Shown in pieces: positions 2 through 62,698 of a stretch of DNA of 64,000 bases. Where the stretch lies: sequence record NC_024125.2; one strand, 5' to 3'. Under the pieces are notes generated by a model. The model ran no database searches. It had not been told where the DNA came from and saw only the letters and a program-made list of their open reading frames with translations. The DNA comes from Escherichia phage vB_EcoM_112. Both the position numbers and the translations under genes were made by a program. Numbering within the stretch: position 1 is the stretch's first letter; every line of letters begins with the position of its first letter.

Positions 2-2179
2 TTAGGCCGCAAGGGCCTTCATAGTTTTAGCGATTTGGGAAACTTCATCATCACTTAAAGAGTTGCGATAACTGATGAAGTCGGAAACAATACGGAATTT
101 CTTGGTAAACTCAGCAACCATTTTATCACTGTTTTTTGAAGCATTATTTGATAATACATCAAAAAGATTAGTTACTGTCCAGATGTCATGACCGATGGTA
201 TCTTTTCCACCATTAAAATATACACCGCGCAATGAACTAACTATATTAGCGAGTCGTGTATATTCTTCAGAAACTTCATCTGTACTGAAGTACTTCATCA
301 TAAAATCTAGTTCAGGATACTTGATAATTTTATCAATATATCGTTGAGCTGAACTTGAATAACCTACATACTTATCATAATCTACATCATCAAAAGCATC
401 TACATATAAATCACGCAAAGCTTCAAAAATACATTGGCACTGACCGAGTTCTTTTACCTTTTTCTGTAAAAGCGGACGAATAACATAAAATTCATTAATG
501 CCAATAAGATTAGCCATACGAATCAAAATATTCATAGATGGATGACAAAGAGATGTAGTACCATCCATAGAGAAAATATCAGAACGATGCATATACGCTA
601 CATAACCAGTAATTTCATCTGCTTCTGACGTAAGTGTAAATAGTTCCTCTTTTTCCCAGCGCCCGTCTTTAATTTCAAACTTAAATGCTGTAGCAGCTTT
701 AGGACGAGGAGCTTTACTTTTAACTACCTTTGGAATATAGCTTTTAACTAAAGCTTCAATTTCTGACAAATAATGAATGTTAACTTCATCACTTTCAAAC
801 ATCGCCATAATATCAGGAAGTAAATCAATCTGCGATTCTACTTCTGGGTTAATAAACAGAAGGCGTTCGTTATGATGAATATTTAAAGTGTTATTAAATT
901 CACTATCATCTAACGCATGTGCTAATCCACGGACAATATTAACACGATTTTTAATATTGTCAATAACGATATTAATTTTTGTTGTATTAATACCAAACAG
1001 ACGATAACTTGATGCAACGGCTGAAGTTTCATGACTTTGCTTAATGCGTTTCAGTCGAGGGTCAAGATTTACTTCATACACAACTCCTGCATTGCATAAC
1101 TTACTGTCAGGTTCAAACATGCTTTGCATCTTTTTATATGACAGATTTTTAGTCGTGAATTTGACTGAATTGCTAATCATATAATCTCGAGCAGAATACC
1201 CCATCTTCATCAATTCACGATATGTGTGACGAGGAGATGTAGATTCTTTAAATCGTTTTACATCTTCATTAAATGCTTTCTCACTGAGTTCTTTAACTCG
1301 TTCAATGATATTTTTACGAGTGCGATCATCTAGTGAAAGAGCCTCACGAGATGGAGCAATATCAAGTGAACCCATTGGAAACTTAATGTAATTCACTTCA
1401 TTGCGGATGCTTAACCAGTTACGGTCTCTAATAACACCATCGATAGGATAAACAATACCGCCATAGATAGCATACAATCCGCCACGATCAGGCCAGTATC
1501 TTTCTGGATTTACACCGTAATAATCATCAAAATCCGGAAAATAATCAATTTCGCGGTCAAGACCATTAATGATAGCCAAATCTTTGAATGGTCGCATGAT
1601 ATAAGAAACTTCATAAGCAAAGTTTCTAAAGTCTTTTTCTTCAACTGGAACTACGATTTCAATACCAGTTTTATCATCTGGACCCATTTCTTTTACGAAT
1701 GTAGGTTTAATCTGTGGACCATCACCATCCATGTAAGCTACATAACCACGAATTTCGCCTTTATGATACGAAGTAATACTAAATGTATCAGTATAACTAA
1801 ACGGAGATTTAGAACCTAAACCAAATCCGCCAATGAAATCGTTAGATTCAGCCTTAGATGAACTGAAGTATGAATTATACAGACCAGGAGAATTATCATC
1901 ACCCTGAATATCAAAATCACTCATACCCGGACCAAAATCTCGACAAACAAATCGCGGATCTAATCGTCCTGGAACTTGTATGATAAATTTTTCAGGATTT
2001 CCATTGAGAGCATGGGCATCAATCATATTAGTAATCAATTCACGGACTACTGCGCGAATCTTGTTTGTATACAAATCAGACGACAGAATTTTAAATACTT
2101 TAGGAGATGCTGTGATGCTAAATGCTTTCGATTTAGAACCATTACCAAGAATTGTTTCTTTTTCAGTGGTGATAATCAT
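2..2179 (-). CDS. rIIA: rIIA membrane-associated protein (rapid-lysis/Rex exclusion locus), 725 aa
   Basis: 725-aa ORF, N-terminus [14 protein letters not shown] and length as I recall for T4 rIIA; ATG at 2177-2179, TAA at 2-4. Confidence 0.9.
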
Positions 2180-2189
2180 AATTTCCTCA

Positions 2190-2393
2190 TTAATTCATAT
2201 TACGCTTAATAACTTCAGCAACTTCTAGTAGTTCATCTTTAGTTGCGGTGTCGGATTGAATTTTATCTCTAATATCTTTAAAGCGGTTTTTAAATTCTTC
2301 GGCTTCTCCCATATCGAAAAAGCGTTGAATGATTCTATATTCTCGATGAACTGCTTTATCAAAAAGTTCTAAATTTACTTTATATGATTTCAT
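2190..2393 (-). CDS. hypothetical 67-aa protein (position of T4 rIIA.1)
   Basis: ORF immediately upstream of rIIA, ATG verified at 2391-2393; early promoter just upstream. Confidence 0.6.
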
Positions 2394-2447
2394 TTCAATA
2401 TCCTCATTTGCCCAATTAATTATACCACATCCTTGTGGTAAAGTAAA

Positions 2448-5642: not shown

Positions 5643-6014
5643 TCACTTAAATTTAATGGCTTGAAGAAGACTAATAACTCTCAAGCGACTTCTTTCATCT
5701 TTAACTGTAAAAGAAAGAGGGTCACCAGACTTCATAGTAATAGTGCATTCAAAATCAAAATCTTCGGAAACTTCTTTGAAGAAGTCAAATTCTTCATCAT
5801 AAATTAAAACTTCACTCCGAAGACTGTGAAGAATTTTTCCGTCATTTCCAGATGCTGTACTAATCATTGTAACATTATTACCTTTCATATCTTCAACGAT
5901 AAATTCGCTTGTAGATATTACAGCATTAATAGAACCATTCCTATAAATAGCAGAAAATAGATATTTCTTTTCTTCACCTTCGCGAATGCGATATTTCTTA
6001 CCGATTTTAAACAT
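5643..6014 (-). CDS. hypothetical protein, 123 aa
   Basis: ATG verified at 6012-6014; no motif recognised. Confidence 0.6.
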   Translation of the reverse strand: MFKIGKKYRIREGEEKKYLFSAIYRNGSINAVISTSEFIVEDMKGNNVTMISTASGNDGKILHSLRSEVLIYDEEFDFFKEVSEDFDFECTITMKSGDPLSFTVKDERSRLRVISLLQAIKFK

Positions 6015-6016
6015 AA

Positions 6017-6193
6017 TTACCCTTTAAGTAAGTCGTAAAAACCACCATTCACATGCTTAGGAGCGGAAACTAACCGAATAGCAATCCGATGACAATCAGG
6101 ACATACATCAGTATCCCTTTCAGAAATTTTCTTGATTTTTTCGTATTCTTTTGCACAGTCTTTGGATTGACATTTATAATCATAAAGAGGCAT
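6017..6193 (-). CDS. zinc-ribbon protein (FmdB-like CxxC...CxxC), 58 aa; not in ORF track
   Basis: MPLYDYKCQSKDC...CPDCHRIA; ATG at 6191-6193 with AAGGAA RBS, TAA at 6017-6019, fills the gap exactly. Confidence 0.5.
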   Translation of the reverse strand: MPLYDYKCQSKDCAKEYEKIKKISERDTDVCPDCHRIAIRLVSAPKHVNGGFYDLLKG

Positions 6194-6195
6194 AA

Positions 6196-6615
6196 TTATT
6201 CCTTAAAGTGAGCTTTCAACATCTGATACAAGGACCATGCTTGTTCATTATTTTCAATAGTAACTTTCATTACCGGGAATTCTGTGAAATCTTCTATTTG
6301 TTCTTGCTCTTCCTGCTCTTGTTCTTCAGCAGCCTGATATGGATTTTCAACTTCATCAAAGAACCCAGCTTCGTTAGTAGAGAGCCAGATAAAGTTTTCG
6401 TCAAGGATATCACCACCGGCACAACGTTTGAGTACACCTATGGATGTCATAATTTTAGTAGGACGCCCAAGATAATCAGCATCTAAAATTTTAAAAGGCT
6501 CCATACCTAAACGTCGTGCATAGATTCCGTTATCAGTATGGTCTTTAATAAAATTTTCTTGAGCTTGTTTATTTTTAAATTGATACCATTTATTAACTTC
6601 AAATTTAATAGCCAT
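6196..6615 (-). CDS. hypothetical acidic protein with [10 protein letters not shown] tract, 139 aa
   Basis: ATG at 6613-6615 overlapping upstream stop (TAATG). Confidence 0.6.
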
Positions 6616-12557: not shown

Positions 12558-13160
12558 TTATAGATTAAATCCTTCAAAATCAAGAGTATAGATAGTGTAT
12601 GTTGAATACTTTTTGTACTCATATCTATCTGCAATTCTAAATACGCTTCCAGCTGGTATCATTACTTCTTGTTCATCTGAAACTAATTCCATATTACGAT
12701 AACGATGGCTATCCGGAAACTTAAAGTTTGGATTGTATTCTTTACAGCGTAGAGCTTTTATAGCATACTCCTGGAAATTGAATACCATAGGAGCTTTGAA
12801 TTCAAAAATAACTTGTGTGTTATACTCTAAACCGGAAGCAAAATGTAGAGCTATATTTTTATCATATGAAGCTGATACTACTTTATCAAATGTAATAATA
12901 TCAATTCCTTGATTTAACACCTGCTTAGTCTCAGCTGGAACACCTCTCCAAAGAGGTTTATCGTTTGGAACCAAACGAGATTTGATTATTTCATTTAACC
13001 AAGTATGGTCATCTGGTTTGTTGGTAATACAATGAATTAAAAGTTCAATTTCAGATAAATTAAACCCTTCAGAAAGTAATTCTTCACGAATAGAAGCACG
13101 CACCGATGCATCCATTGATTTTATTTTAAAATCTTTTAGTTGCATTACTGAGTATTTCAT
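12558..13160 (-). CDS. modA: ADP-ribosyltransferase ModA, 200 aa
   Basis: R-S-E triad elements (LWRG, SAS, EQEVMIP); length; tandem with modB. Confidence 0.85.
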   Translation of the reverse strand: MKYSVMQLKDFKIKSMDASVRASIREELLSEGFNLSEIELLIHCITNKPDDHTWLNEIIKSRLVPNDKPLWRGVPAETKQVLNQGIDIITFDKVVSASYDKNIALHFASGLEYNTQVIFEFKAPMVFNFQEYAIKALRCKEYNPNFKFPDSHRYRNMELVSDEQEVMIPAGSVFRIADRYEYKKYSTYTIYTLDFEGFNL

Positions 13161-13780
13161 TCAACTACCTCAATATCATAAACTTTAAATGTTCCAAAAG
13201 AATCGTGTAATTTTTCTTTTGAAATAGAAGTTATTCTATACTTTCCAATTGGAATCATCCATTCTTGTTCACGCACAATCATCATTAAGTTATCAGTACG
13301 CTCTGAATCTAATCCATCAGTATCTTCATATGTATACTTAAACTCAGTATTAGGAGAAGAAAGTATAATATCGCTGATATGGTCAGAGTAATTAAAAGCT
13401 TTATCAGTTTTTAAACGAAGTATTGTTTCAGTGAAATATTCAGCATAAGAAAAAGAACACGCTGTATGCAAACTAGTAGTAAATGAATCTACCCTGTTCG
13501 TTGAAAACACTTCTCCAATTTGTAAATCTTTAATAAGTTCTTTTGTCGATTTTGATATACCACGATATAACTGATAAGGCGATTTAGTTAAATGCTTTTT
13601 AATGATTTTATTCAACTGCCTATGAATAGCTTCATTCTTTTTGGCTTCCATACATTGCCAAAGAACAGACTGCTCGAAGCCAGTAAATTTTTCACAGACT
13701 TTTTTATACATATCATATTGAAAATCAACGCTTTCAGCTTTTATAGATAACTGTTCAACATCTGCAGGATTAATAATCAT
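13157..13780 (-). CDS. modB: ADP-ribosyltransferase ModB, 207 aa
   Basis: Paralog of ModA (LYRG, FST, EQEWMIP); ATGA overlap with modA. Confidence 0.85.
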   Translation of the reverse strand: MIINPADVEQLSIKAESVDFQYDMYKKVCEKFTGFEQSVLWQCMEAKKNEAIHRQLNKIIKKHLTKSPYQLYRGISKSTKELIKDLQIGEVFSTNRVDSFTTSLHTACSFSYAEYFTETILRLKTDKAFNYSDHISDIILSSPNTEFKYTYEDTDGLDSERTDNLMMIVREQEWMIPIGKYRITSISKEKLHDSFGTFKVYDIEVVE

Positions 13781-58494: not shown

Positions 58495-58707
58495 TCATTT
58501 TTGTCCTGTATTTACTTTATGCCGATGCACGGCCTTAACTTTATCAAGGTATTTTTCAAAATTTCGCAATCTAGTATAGTCTGCCGGAGATTGATTGAGT
58601 GATACTTCTCGACGCAAAGCTGAAATGATATTTCCAACTTCCCTACGAATTTCATCTAATTGAAGCACAGTAAGATTGCGAAGTTGCTTTTCAGTTAATT
58701 GTAGCAT
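58495..58707 (-). CDS. hypothetical protein, 70 aa
   Basis: ORF track. Confidence 0.5.
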
Positions 58708-58749
58708 ATATACCCCTTTAGTTAGATAAACCTATTTATAACTTTTGCA

Positions 58750-59331
58750 CTAACCGAGCTTTTTAGTTAATTCATTCCAATGTTTTCTACACAAAGAAAC
58801 ATAAATTTCATCACCAATACAGATTTGATTACCTTCTTTAACTGGTGTTCCATCTTCCATTAATCGAGCTGTCATAATCGCTTTTTTGCCGCAATGACAA
58901 ACTGCCTTTAGTTCAATAAGTTTATCTGCAATCGCTAAAAGTTCTTTAGAACCTTCAAACAATTTTCCAGCGAAATCAGTCCTTAATCCATAAGCCATAA
59001 CAGGAACATTATATGTATCAACAATTCGGCTCAATTGATGCACCTGTTCAGTTTTTAAAAACTGGGCTTCATCTACAAATACGCAATGAATATCTTTTTG
59101 TGCTTCAGCCCATTTATAGAACTCGAAAATATCCATATCATCTGTAATAATATTTGCTTCCTGCCTAATTCCAATGCGAGAAACGACTTCACAGACAGAA
59201 TCGCGAGTATCAATAGCAGGCTTAAGAACTAATACACTCATTCCACGTTCTTTATAATTATGTGCAGCAGTCAAAAGAGAAGCAGATTTTCCAGCATTCA
59301 TTGCTGCATAAGTAAAAATTAAACTCGCCAT
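58750..59331 (-). CDS. tk: thymidine kinase, 193 aa
   Basis: P-loop AAMNAGKS; C-terminal zinc ligands CHCG...C..H; length. Confidence 0.9.
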   Translation of the reverse strand: MASLIFTYAAMNAGKSASLLTAAHNYKERGMSVLVLKPAIDTRDSVCEVVSRIGIRQEANIITDDMDIFEFYKWAEAQKDIHCVFVDEAQFLKTEQVHQLSRIVDTYNVPVMAYGLRTDFAGKLFEGSKELLAIADKLIELKAVCHCGKKAIMTARLMEDGTPVKEGNQICIGDEIYVSLCRKHWNELTKKLG

Positions 59332-59332
59332 C

Positions 59333-59521
59333 TTAGTCCTTAGTTAAATTTTCTAAATATGTTTCTAAATCATTTTCAGCTTTATCGATAGATTTTACTA
59401 ATTCGTAATATGTTTCGGCATCTCCATATTCAGAAGATATTTCAAAAGACAAATCCTTTTCTAAACTAATAATTTCACCAACTAAAAATAATATTTCGTT
59501 CTTTTGTTCGCGAGTAATCAT
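59333..59521 (-). CDS. small helical protein, 62 aa, paralog family member
   Basis: N-terminus MITREQKNEILFLVGEI. Confidence 0.5.
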   Translation of the reverse strand: MITREQKNEILFLVGEIISLEKDLSFEISSEYGDAETYYELVKSIDKAENDLETYLENLTKD

Positions 59522-59703
59522 AAGGAATTTATATAATTAATAAGTTCTTGTTCTTTATTATCGAATTCTTTAGAAAGTTCTTCGTACTCGTTTGCACTAA
59601 AAGGACCGCATTCATTACAAACTTTTTCCAATTCGCTATTTTTATCCATAACTTCGTGGATAAGAGAAAAGAGTTTGTCTTTTTGTTCTTTGCTTAGGCT
59701 CAT
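59518..59703 (-). CDS. small helical protein, 61 aa, paralog family member
   Basis: N-terminus MSLSKEQKDKLFSLIHEV. Confidence 0.5.
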   Translation of the reverse strand: MSLSKEQKDKLFSLIHEVMDKNSELEKVCNECGPFSANEYEELSKEFDNKEQELINYINSL

Positions 59704-59873
59704 ATATTAATTTCCAGAAGTTTTAAAATAATTCGCTTTTGCTTAAATATTTCCATAGTTAAATGATCAGTATCTTTTTGACCAATTCCAATGGCAAAAC
59801 CTTTATTAGCAGCGAGTTCAATTAAATTATCAAGTTCACGTAACACTTCGTACTGTAACTCAGAACTATTCAT
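59700..59873 (-). CDS. hypothetical small protein, 57 aa; not in ORF track
   Basis: Translated codon by codon: ATG 59871-59873 to TGA 59700-59702. Confidence 0.4.
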   Translation of the reverse strand: MNSSELQYEVLRELDNLIELAANKGFAIGIGQKDTDHLTMEIFKQKRIILKLLEINI

Positions 59874-60082
59874 TTCGGTTTACCTTCTTTAACGAAATCT
59901 GGATAAGGATAAAATCCCGAATAAAATCCTTCACCTTTATGATTGACGCATCCTTTATTAGAACAATAGCACCAATAATCGAAATCACAAGCCATTTCAT
60001 CGTTGCATAAAGCAAAAACAACCGGCCACTTACACTTTTCACAATGGGCATTTTTAAGAATACTAGTTTGGCTCATAACCAT
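59870..60082 (-). CDS. cysteine-rich small protein, 70 aa
   Basis: Eight Cys, CEKCKW...CYCSNKGC. Confidence 0.5.
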   Translation of the reverse strand: MVMSQTSILKNAHCEKCKWPVVFALCNDEMACDFDYWCYCSNKGCVNHKGEGFYSGFYPYPDFVKEGKPK

Positions 60083-60300
60083 GTCACCTTTAAGCAGTAT
60101 TCTTCTACATGCTGTTTACGACCTTTCTTATCAATAAAGGTATATTCAACGAATGTTCCAATGTAGTCTTTATCTACATCATGTGGACTATTAATTGGAC
60201 ATTTAGTACGGCAAATGCGTTCCCATTGACGAATAATTACTGCCTTATTCTTTGGGTCATACGGATGTGGATAATGTATATTCATAATAACGGTTCCCAA
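60073..60300 (-). CDS. hypothetical protein, 75 aa
   Basis: ORF track. Confidence 0.5.
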   Translation of the reverse strand: MGTVIMNIHYPHPYDPKNKAVIIRQWERICRTKCPINSPHDVDKDYIGTFVEYTFIDKKGRKQHVEEYCLKVTWL

Positions 60301-60749
60301 TCAACAATCACAATTTCTAATTTAGAGGAATATGTATCTAAAATCCCCTCAATAATATCCCAGTTCCCTTTACCTATGCCTGCACCAATCCTAGGCATAT
60401 AGATTGTAGGTTTAATCAGTTTATTTTCACCAAACTCATTTAATTCTAACATACAATTCATTAAAGCGGAATACTCAAAATTTGGCCCCGGTTGAAATTG
60501 AGTATAAAGATTAAAGCAGTAAGCTTTATGAGTCCTAAAGTATTTTTCATAGACTGAGTAAGAACCGAGTTTAGTTACATCGCCCCATTCTGTCTGTAAT
60601 TTATCAGCTTCCAAAATTTTAGGGAAAGCTTTGGTTAATTGACCCGCTACGCCTGAACCCATAGTATGAAAACAATTGCATCCATGCGCAATATTTTTAC
60701 CTTCAGCGAAAAGGGCGACAATATCGCCCTTGATATATTTTACAATCAT
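60282..60749 (-). CDS. macro-domain (ADP-ribose-binding/processing) protein, 155 aa
   Basis: Macro-domain-like elements GDIV...IAHGCNCFHTMGSGVAGQL and IGAGIG. Confidence 0.55.
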   Translation of the reverse strand: MIVKYIKGDIVALFAEGKNIAHGCNCFHTMGSGVAGQLTKAFPKILEADKLQTEWGDVTKLGSYSVYEKYFRTHKAYCFNLYTQFQPGPNFEYSALMNCMLELNEFGENKLIKPTIYMPRIGAGIGKGNWDIIEGILDTYSSKLEIVIVDWEPLL

Positions 60750-61087
60750 CTAGTACTCAATCCTCGATTATAAGAATCTACCAAACGGTCAACCATTGAA
60801 TGACAAGCGGCTTTATCTTTCTCCTCCGCAACTGAACATTCTAAAGTATTCCACTTTTTAGCATATCGTTTTAACAATGTATCATTTTTGTATCTGCTTG
60901 ATTTATCTCTTTCTCCGTCTTTATATGCATATATTAATTTCTGCGCAAATTCAGCTTGGCATGCTTTATTTTTCCCGCAATAATCCGCTGCAGTACGGTT
61001 TACATACTCTCTAATTTCAGTATATGATGTATCTGCTAACGCAGAAAATGAAATTAATCCTATACATAAAACCAAAATTTTAGTCAT
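60746..61087 (-). CDS. secreted protein with signal peptide, 113 aa
   Basis: MTKILVLCIGLISFSALA leader; four Cys. Confidence 0.55.
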   Translation of the reverse strand: MTKILVLCIGLISFSALADTSYTEIREYVNRTAADYCGKNKACQAEFAQKLIYAYKDGERDKSSRYKNDTLLKRYAKKWNTLECSVAEEKDKAACHSMVDRLVDSYNRGLSTR

Positions 61088-61625
61088 TTACTATTTCCAA
61101 AAGTTTATTATTTTTAAGGTAATTAGCCTTTTCTAGGACTTCAGAAGCATATTTAGAACCAGCTTTAACATTCCATCCCGAATTATAAGAGGATATTGCT
61201 TTTCTTATATCGCCCTTATGTATATTTAACCAATAAGAAAGTTCAATGTACGCCCAGGAAGCTGAATTGGATCGTTTATTCAACATTCTTTTTATTTCAG
61301 CATCGGTCATATTATAACCAAGTTCCTTAACTCTTGCTCGCATAGTAGGCAAATAATTTTGGAACATTCCGTAGGCGTGATGCTTTGGTTTAGATTTTAA
61401 ATTAACTCCGCCAGAGCTTTCTTGCCATAAAATAGCAGCCATTATATGACCTAATCCGCTCTTGTGGATGTTTTTATGTGTTTTATATTTTCCATCCTTA
61501 GAAAATTGTTCCCCGAATTGATACGCGTAACGCATGTTATCGAGTTGGACATTACTGAAAGTATGCTCGGAGCTATGTGCCATCATTGAAATGGCCAATA
61601 GACCAGCGAGTAGTGCTTTTCTCAT
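61080..61625 (-). CDS. periplasmic lytic transglycosylase-like (SLT domain) protein, 181 aa
   Basis: Signal peptide; SLT-like motifs WQESSGG, YGMFQ, SSYNSGW. Confidence 0.55.
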   Translation of the reverse strand: MRKALLAGLLAISMMAHSSEHTFSNVQLDNMRYAYQFGEQFSKDGKYKTHKNIHKSGLGHIMAAILWQESSGGVNLKSKPKHHAYGMFQNYLPTMRARVKELGYNMTDAEIKRMLNKRSNSASWAYIELSYWLNIHKGDIRKAISSYNSGWNVKAGSKYASEVLEKANYLKNNKLLEIVND

Positions 61626-61632
61626 GCTTACC

Positions 61633-62094
61633 TCATTTAGTTTTAATTACTGCTTTAGAAGCCTTTCCTGGTAAACGGCGACTGTTGATAATTGCCATCC
61701 TACATTGAAGTGATGGGTCTTTGAACTTCTCATTAGGTTTACAAACTGTAAATCCAAGCCAAAGATTTCCATCTGTAATTTCTAAACGTCCAGGACGATA
61801 TTCAACCCCATCAATAAAATCCTCGTCAATGTCAGGACGCGGAGGCATACTCAGGAATTCATTAACTTCTAAAACATGGTCTTTTATTTTATGGAATAAT
61901 TCAAAAACATATGTCTCATCAATCTCCCGTTGAATTGCACGATCAAGAAGATGTTGAGAATATTTTAGATGAAACGATGAGACTCCTGCTGCTTTTGATG
62001 CCTCACGAATCTCATTGTTAATTTGACGAAACTCCGACTCAAAATGACGACGAAGCTTATTTCGACGGATAAAAACTTCTGTATTGATAGTCAT
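61633..62094 (-). CDS. regB: RegB sequence-specific endoribonuclease, 153 aa
   Basis: Length and synteny; early promoter upstream. Confidence 0.8.
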   Translation of the reverse strand: MTINTEVFIRRNKLRRHFESEFRQINNEIREASKAAGVSSFHLKYSQHLLDRAIQREIDETYVFELFHKIKDHVLEVNEFLSMPPRPDIDEDFIDGVEYRPGRLEITDGNLWLGFTVCKPNEKFKDPSLQCRMAIINSRRLPGKASKAVIKTK

Positions 62095-62121
62095 GTTGTT
62101 CTCCTCTTAACTGATAGAAAA

Positions 62122-62151
62122 ATTATACCACAGTCAAGAGGAAAAGTAAAC
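62122..62151 (-). promoter_or_regulatory. T4-type early promoter (GTTTAC-N18-TATAAT) upstream of regB
   Basis: Plus gtaaac 62146-62151, attata 62122-62127. Confidence 0.6.
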
Positions 62152-62153
62152 AG

Positions 62154-62474
62154 TTATTCTTTAAATCTAATCAATTTATTCATAGACTTTGAAACTTCTG
62201 CACGAACCTCATGTAGATTTTTGAGCTGTTCAAGACGCTGCTCATAGTAAGCAATTTCATCTTCTTCGAGACAGTCCTGTGAATCTTCTTTAAGATAACG
62301 TGCATAGTCCTGGAAAGCGTTACGAACTACTTCCTGGAAGTCATCAAGACTTTGAATTTTCTTAGGAGCAACAGATACACGACGAGGGGCAGTATAATAC
62401 TCATAACCAAACCCTGCGCTTAATTGAGCCATTAGTATTTTTCCTCTGGTTGGAACACTGCGCGGCAAGCCCAC
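62154..62474 (-). CDS. hypothetical protein, 106 aa
   Basis: ORF track. Confidence 0.5.
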
Positions 62475-62698
62475 ATACTGGCTTCTTTGAGTTTCGTTTT
62501 AGCAATAGTTAACTGATCGAGGCTTTCGGCGTAATTCTTCGCGAGTTCATCATCTTCACAGCTATCAAATGCTTCCCAAAATTCATCGTATAAAGCATCA
62601 AAGATAAGTCCTAAACGAACTTCAGCGTCTTTAATAGCATTTACTTTACCGATTTTTTCGTCGGTGTGTGGCTTATAACCTTTAATATCTTCAATCAT
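62432..62698 (-). CDS. hypothetical protein, about 88 aa; by position possibly the vs.4/Acb2-type anti-CBASS protein
   Basis: ATG at 62696-62698 with GAGGAAG RBS; second ORF after regB; no sequence-level confirmation. Confidence 0.4.

Follow-up and report, generated by a model that had tools for sequence, protein, structure and literature searches.

DarTG systems stop phages through ADP-ribosylation of phage DNA, and T-even phages meet them with layered countermeasures, comprising AdfA, the NADAR protein AdfN against DarTG1, and the macrodomain protein AdfM (Tk.4) against DarTG2. AdfN, the product of T4 gene 30.3, is a hydrolase that resembles an orphan antitoxin and frees DNA of the ADP-ribose added by DarT; it acts on the guanosine adducts of DarT1 and gives no protection against DarTG2 (PMC11825919), and is thus a functional analogue of Tk.4 within the same phage, built on the unrelated NADAR fold. 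T4 lacking both adfA and adfN was still resistant to DarTG2, and a further factor was predicted (Deb et al., PMC11825919). The HIDEN-SEQ preprint of November 2025 (10.1101/2025.11.20.689424) reports that tk.4 was the single significant T4 hit of a transposon screen (Tn-seq) in a DarTG2-expressing host, that a clean tk.4 knockout made T4 DarTG2-sensitive, and that the gene was dispensable on Escherichia coli K-12, being necessary only in the presence of DarTG2. In the same text the gene was renamed adfM, for anti-DarT factor Macrodomain, a structural similarity of Tk.4 to the Mycobacterium tuberculosis (Mtb) DarG macrodomain was remarked upon, and removal of ADP-ribose from DNA by Tk.4 was put forward as something that 'seems likely'. 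The genetic evidence on tk.4 is therefore that of a preprint, the accessible text of which describes neither complementation nor a catalytic mutant.

The name AdfM was given independently to gp104 of phage PhiKZ (Cell Rep 2026, PMC13309987), a phage-encoded stand-alone macrodomain that also counters DarTG2, strips DarT2-made ADP-ribose from a TNTC oligonucleotide in vitro, and loses part of its activity in the N23A mutant (PMC13309987). Unlike Tk.4, gp104 acts in a phage that forms a phage nucleus, which it enters; this structure is absent in T4. Beyond phages, DarG, human TARG1 (OARD1) and SCO6735 of Streptomyces coelicolor all reverse thymidine-linked ADP-ribosylation (PMC9411070). Of these, SCO6735 is the fastest at clearing ADP-ribose from thymidine and also protects cells against DarT toxicity (PMC9411070); the clearing activity has since been re-confirmed (PMC12879935). 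It is a stand-alone macrodomain of cellular origin, induced by DNA damage. Its Gln85 replaces the Lys, the changes Q85A or Q85E abolish activity, and mutagenesis and molecular dynamics have led to the proposal of a water-mediated mechanism (PMC9411070).

Here we analyse a 155-aa open reading frame (ORF) of Escherichia phage vB_EcoM_112 (NC_024125.2), within a stretch of 64,000 nucleotides that we refer to as the window. By protein sequence and position the ORF is T4 gene tk.4 (adfM), the identity and biological role of which are already in the literature. What our alignments add to this known gene is a Gln-for-Lys site that is a feature of the Tk.4 family as judged from sequence. Recognition of the ORF as adfM explains the DarTG2 resistance of such phages and bears on host-range prediction, and the value that remains is mechanistic, since an invariant Gln stands, as in SCO6735, where DarG and PhiKZ AdfM have a catalytic Lys, and the hydrolase activity of Tk.4 is putative.

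Identification of the gene

A single ATG-initiated ORF, taken from the ORF listing of the window, encodes the 155-aa protein (Table 1), and its translation carries the GDIV, IAHGCNCFHTMGSGVAGQL and IGAGIG motifs from which a preliminary description of this DNA had called it macro-domain-like; the ORF and its motifs are real. In tblastn searches the protein proved 100% identical to T4 Tk.4 (X04567, ORF 60.5; OZ209057) across all 155 aa, and matches were obtained in 2749 phage records; the ORF is therefore a conserved gene rather than the product of chance. Because 155 of 155 residues are shared and the gene occupies the same place between vs and tk.3, in an order that matches T2 and T4, we take it to be the same gene, to which the published T4 DarTG2 phenotype applies, and which was for that reason already known. 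A1pp domain matches in orthologues of tk.4 were already listed in a comparative paper of 2006 (PMC1524935), many GenBank records already label the gene 'macro domain protein', and PHROG 335, labelled 'phosphatase', matches Tk.4 at E 1.3e-65. At both ends the coding sequence overlaps that of its neighbour in an ATGA tetranucleotide, an arrangement that at the vs-tk.4 junction points to translational coupling. Such tight gene packing is typical of T4 early-gene clusters.

Table 1. Features of the tk.4 locus and related genes in the window
Feature	Position	Strand	Basis or remark
tk.4 / adfM coding sequence, stand-alone macrodomain, 155 aa	60282..60749	-	ORF, T4 identity, Pfam, AF2
ATGA, vs stop codon overlapping tk.4 start codon	60746..60749	-	sequence, ORF coordinates
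ATGA, tk.4 stop codon overlapping tk.3 start codon (ATG at 60285)	60282..60285	-	sequence
Asn25 codon, HGCNC motif (DarG N22, PhiKZ AdfM N23)	60675..60677	-	hhalign, A1 vs Taq DarG
First glycine-rich loop, M30-G-S-G-V-A-G36	60642..60662	-	conservation, alignment to TARG1/DarG
Y82-T83-Q84 codons, NLYTQ motif	60498..60506	-	conservation, alignments
Second glycine-rich loop, P119-R-I-G-A-G-I-G-K-G128	60366..60395	-	conservation, alignment to TARG1
Extra small ORF, 57 aa	59700..59873	-	PHROG 3452, no assigned function
Extra small ORF, 70 aa	59870..60082	-	PHROG 2306, no assigned function
tk.3	60073..60285	-	full-length match to PHROG 2008
vs, 113 aa	60746..61087	-	
vs.1, SLT transglycosylase-like	61080..61625	-	
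ModA	12558..13160	-	PHROG 832 'RNA polymerase ADP-ribosylase'
ModB	13157..13780	-	PHROG 832 'RNA polymerase ADP-ribosylase'

Fold and macrodomain class

Tk.4 scores 27.7 bits (E 2.9e-6) with the Pfam Macro family (PF01661), for which the gathering cut-off is 22; the match spans profile positions 2-113 of 118. A family alignment (A1) of 103 homologues, drawn from a large protein database search, was used to build an AF2 model of Tk.4 with a pLDDT of 96.2 and a pTM of 0.91. When this model was compared with the PDB by Foldseek, the top 50 hits were all macrodomains or macro-scaffold designs, with a probability of 1.00 and TM-scores up to 0.82; TARG1 (4J5R/4J5S) ranked first (E 5.8e-10), followed by yeast Poa1p, Bacteroides BT1257 (2FG1/2AFC) and the DarG macrodomains of Thermus aquaticus (Taq, 5M31/5M3E) and Mtb (5M3I), which have the same fold as Tk.4 at TM 0.76-0.78, while viral nsp3 macrodomains came after DarG at far weaker scores. 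The structure of SCO6735 (5E3B) was not among these top 50 PDB hits. A HMMER search of PDB sequences with the Tk.4 family profile returned BT1257 (E 1.6e-19), TARG1 (E 4.5e-16), SCO6735 (E 3.9e-15), Poa1p (E 2.8e-14), Mtb DarG (E 4.9e-14), Taq DarG (E 3.5e-12) and, at about 2e-3, the nsp3 macrodomains. BT1257, a protein with no assigned function, was also the best PDB match of Tk.4 searched as a single sequence (E 1.3e-9), and the PDB search returned no solved structure of Tk.4 itself.

The score above the Pfam cut-off, the profile search and a model with a pLDDT of 96 that matches TARG1, Poa1p, BT1257 and DarG together bear out the macro-domain assignment that had been made from motifs. On these sequence and model comparisons, Tk.4 is a stand-alone macrodomain of the ALC1-like class, and not of the MacroD or viral nsp3 type. 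Residue roles for Poa1p (H23, S30 and F152) were taken from the titles of its PDB entries.

The possibility that Tk.4 is itself a DarG antitoxin was considered and rejected. The NCBIfam equivalog model for DarG (NF048014) scores it at 30.3 bits against a cut-off of 250, over model positions 2-146 of 338, and the PADLOC DarG model matches it (E 1.3e-9) in the macro part only, positions 2-145 of 329. DarG has a catalytic Lys80, a C-terminal DarT-binding domain and an adjacent darT, whereas Tk.4 has Gln84 and neither of the other two, no darT gene being found next to tk.4, where the neighbours are vs and tk.3. Two family members labelled as proteins of bacterial metagenome-assembled genomes (MAGs), P0072 and P0118, were likewise discarded as cellular proteins: both lie on T4-like phage contigs, with genes for Rnl1, PNKP, dCMP deaminase, a Dda-like helicase and a T4 spanin, and not in DarTG loci, and therefore no cellular Tk.4-type DarG was found.

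Distant loci of the family on T4-like contigs, labelled as bacterial MAG proteins, were located at 1927..2397 (L003) and 6001..6480 (L004). In the former, the macro gene is flanked directly by an Rnl1 RNA ligase cluster, which includes a DUF4326 gene, on one side and by a Dda-like helicase on the other, and PNKP is close by, a neighbourhood that is unlike the tk-vs cluster and in which the macro gene adjoins RNA-repair genes.

Active-site residues

Alignment of the Tk.4 family with the Taq DarG macrodomain by hhalign (probability 98%, E 2.4e-13) places N25 on N22 and Q84 on K80. The conserved Asn is nearly invariant in the 103 homologues. The first glycine-rich loop lines up with those of TARG1 and DarG (MGAGIA / MGKGVA), has invariant G33 and A35 and a nearly invariant M30, and is predicted to contact the diphosphate and distal ribose of ADP-ribose. 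The second loop, aligned with MPRIGCGLDRLQW of TARG1, has invariant P119, I121, G122 and G124, with G128 and W130 nearly invariant, and Tk.4 has the MPRIGxG loop in common with both TARG1 and BT1257.

The distinctive feature of the family lies in a conserved N-L-Y-T-Q-x-x-P-G motif, where Y82 and Q84 are invariant in the 103 homologues (Q84 in 103/103) and T83 is nearly so. The residue aligned with Q84 is the catalytic Lys in DarG (K80), TARG1 (K84) and PhiKZ AdfM (K78), and the profile alignment sets G126 opposite Asp125 of TARG1, so that the Lys84/Asp125 dyad of that enzyme corresponds to Q84 and G126 in Tk.4. BT1257 likewise has a Gln at the Lys column of the profile alignment. By transitivity, through the TARG1 and DarG alignments and the published structural alignment (PMC9411070), Q84 would be the equivalent of Gln85 in SCO6735, which is, like Tk.4, a stand-alone macrodomain with Gln at the Lys position. 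For BT1257, the HMMER profile and published structure-based alignments were used instead of a MAFFT alignment (A2), in which BT1257 is displaced by two columns near the TQ motif. In A2, with BT1257 shifted in this way, Q84 of Tk.4 is followed by a short FQPGPN segment that is 3 residues shorter than in BT1257; for SCO6735, an extended mobile loop carrying Lys89 and Lys93 has been described (PMC9411070).

Proposed mechanism and alternative explanations

In a host carrying DarTG2, the DarT2 toxin would ADP-ribosylate thymidine in TNTC motifs of single-stranded phage DNA, and replication would be blocked. The two glycine-rich loops of Tk.4 would then hold the ADP-ribose attached to thymidine N3, and hydrolysis of the ribose-N3-thymine bond would return an unmodified, replicable template. 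The route is most likely lysine-independent and water-mediated, as proposed for SCO6735, with the invariant Gln84 positioning the substrate; since the catalytic Lys of DarG and TARG1 and the Asp of TARG1 are absent, the predicted activity rests on the analogy with SCO6735. We thus consider it likely that Tk.4 is an orphan antitoxin-like counter-defence enzyme that removes DarT2-made ADP-ribose from thymidine in DNA, presumably the same substrate as that of DarG, in a Gln84-assisted and lysine-independent manner. This reading draws on the identity with T4 Tk.4, the macro fold and the residue equivalences described above, and on the DarTG2-specific requirement for the gene that is known from the literature.

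The preliminary description had offered two roles for the protein, one regulatory and the other anti-defence. The second agrees with the T4 genetics with DarTG2 given in the preprint, and the known target is thymidine in DNA as modified by the host's DarT2; the plating of a knockout on a host with an ADP-ribosylating defence, which had been suggested as a check, was already published there for T4, with the tk.4 knockout DarTG2-sensitive (10.1101/2025.11.20.689424). The proposed connection to ModA and ModB and the proposed degradation of ADP-ribose-derived signals gained no support.

Neutralization of DarTG2 could in principle proceed mainly without catalysis, through binding and inhibition of DarT2 or through shielding of ADP-ribosylated or target DNA. 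Such behaviour has precedent in the catalytically dead forms of SCO6735 (Q85A), DarG (K80A) and TARG1 (K84A), which inhibit DarT in vitro by interaction, SCO6735 most strongly (PMC9411070), and would suit a protein from which the canonical catalytic Lys is absent. However, Tk.4 is without the domain by which DarG binds DarT, and the residues that are invariant in its family are exactly those of the ADP-ribose pocket (N25, G33, Q84 and the G122/G124 loop), which is the pattern expected of an enzyme and not of a toxin-specific binder. The diversity of DarT2 variants met by T-even phages also favours erasing the product over binding the toxin, and we judge a chiefly non-catalytic action to be quite improbable. 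Regulation of the phage's own ADP-ribosylation, by erasure of Alt, ModA and ModB marks or of ModB-linked RNAylation, was the leading idea of the preliminary description, and both transferases that it named are indeed encoded in the window. Protein-linked ADP-ribose is also a substrate of SCO6735 and TARG1 (PMC9411070), and myoviruses are enriched in both macro domains and ADP-ribosyltransferases (PMC9503650). Against this, modA and modB lie about 47 kb from tk.4 in the window and are unlinked to it, and the marks that Alt, ModA and ModB leave are arginine-linked. Arginine linkages of this kind are undone by ARH/DraG-type enzymes; ALC1-like macrodomains, the substrates of which are acidic-residue esters and thymidine, are not known to cleave them. 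Taken with the dispensability of tk.4 on K-12 and the need for it only with DarTG2 in the preprint (10.1101/2025.11.20.689424), this makes control of the phage's own marks a highly improbable main function.

Small derivatives are a further candidate substrate, whether ADP-ribose-1''-phosphate, O-acetyl-ADP-ribose, or the TIR/Thoeris signals gcADPR and His-ADPR. Iyer et al. have argued for a possible preference of phage macro domains for soluble derivatives of ADP-ribose. Poa1p, a yeast ADP-ribose-1''-phosphatase, is among the closest structures and has the H-x-C-N-C motif in common with Tk.4 (H22 corresponding to H23 of Poa1p), the distant T4-like contigs place the gene beside RNA ligase 1 and near PNKP, and databases attach the labels 'phosphatase' (PHROG 335), 'A1pp phosphatase' and 'O-acetyl-ADP-ribose deacetylase', which are nevertheless inherited domain names. 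To our knowledge, T4 tRNA repair by PNK and Rnl1 makes no ADP-ribose-1''-phosphate, which counts against this proposal, as does the lack of any Thoeris phenotype reported for tk.4 in the literature covered. A primary role in small-molecule turnover would leave the DarTG2-specific phenotype unexplained, and we see very little chance of it. All three alternatives could be secondary activities of Tk.4; none of them accounts for the DarTG2-specific requirement, for which removal of ADP-ribose from thymidine in DNA is our preferred explanation.

An extended form of that explanation holds that T-even AdfM is a Gln-type hydrolase with a chemistry distinct from that of DarG and PhiKZ AdfM and with the broader substrates of SCO6735, also trimming, in the course of infection, the ADP-ribose or RNA-ADP-ribose carried by proteins. 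We regard this combination as unlikely; if it were true, Tk.4 would have a dual role, countering host defence and regulating the Alt/ModA/ModB programme of the phage itself.

Two phage proteins under one name

The name AdfM now covers two phage macrodomains that are only remotely related. PhiKZ gp104 is of the Lys type (N23, K78), and its matches to DarG lie at E 1e-25 to 3e-19, whereas the single-sequence match of Tk.4 to DarG is at 5e-4; between Tk.4 and gp104, BLASTP finds a 23-residue match (E 0.005) and hhalign gives a probability of 96%. The remoteness of this kinship, together with the closeness of gp104 to DarG, places the two in different subfamilies, the T4 protein being a Gln-type AdfM resembling BT1257 and SCO6735 and the PhiKZ protein a closely DarG-like one. 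Their chemistry probably differs, and they may be independent acquisitions.

Gene neighbourhood

The order of genes in the window is tk, tk.1, tk.2, the 57-aa ORF, the 70-aa ORF, tk.3, tk.4, vs, vs.1 and regB, which equals the T2 annotation between tk and regB. The two small ORFs between tk.2 and tk.3 occur in T2-like phages (T2_114 and T2_115) and are absent from T4, and the DNA from 58700 to 62200 is 99.2% identical to vB-Eco-KMB23 and 98.1% identical to T2. The surrounding region thus differs from that of T4 in being T2-like, and the estimate of about two more ORFs than T4 between tk and regB, made in the preliminary description, was exact because the window has the T2-type arrangement. The product of the 70-aa ORF is rich in Cys (C14xxC17, C26, C32, C38, C40 and C45), a composition that suggests a small zinc-binding protein.

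In scans of 58600..62600, promoter-like sites numbered 17 (16.6 expected) and terminator-like sites 3 (1.8 expected). Both figures are at chance level, and we therefore make no claim on the expression of tk.4. A hairpin at 60711..60731 (+) was set aside, as it falls on the non-coding strand inside tk.4 and probably arose by chance. The best sigma-70-like site of the region, at 62122..62150 (-), has TTTACT-17-TATAAT with an extended TG and is situated immediately upstream of regB; the early promoter for the regB-vs.1-vs-tk.4 cluster may be this site, in a scan that as a whole does not rise above chance.

Three observations concern the genes that precede tk.4. The N-terminus of Vs resembles a signal peptide (MTKILVLCIGLISFSALA/D), although the protein is annotated as the valyl-tRNA synthetase modifier, which is odd for the partner of a cytoplasmic synthetase, and the N-terminus of Vs.1 is also signal-peptide-like. 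Vs has 113 aa in the window, against a gene of 348 nt in T2 and T4. In the HIDEN-SEQ preprint, no T4 gene was more depleted in minimal medium than vs (10.1101/2025.11.20.689424).
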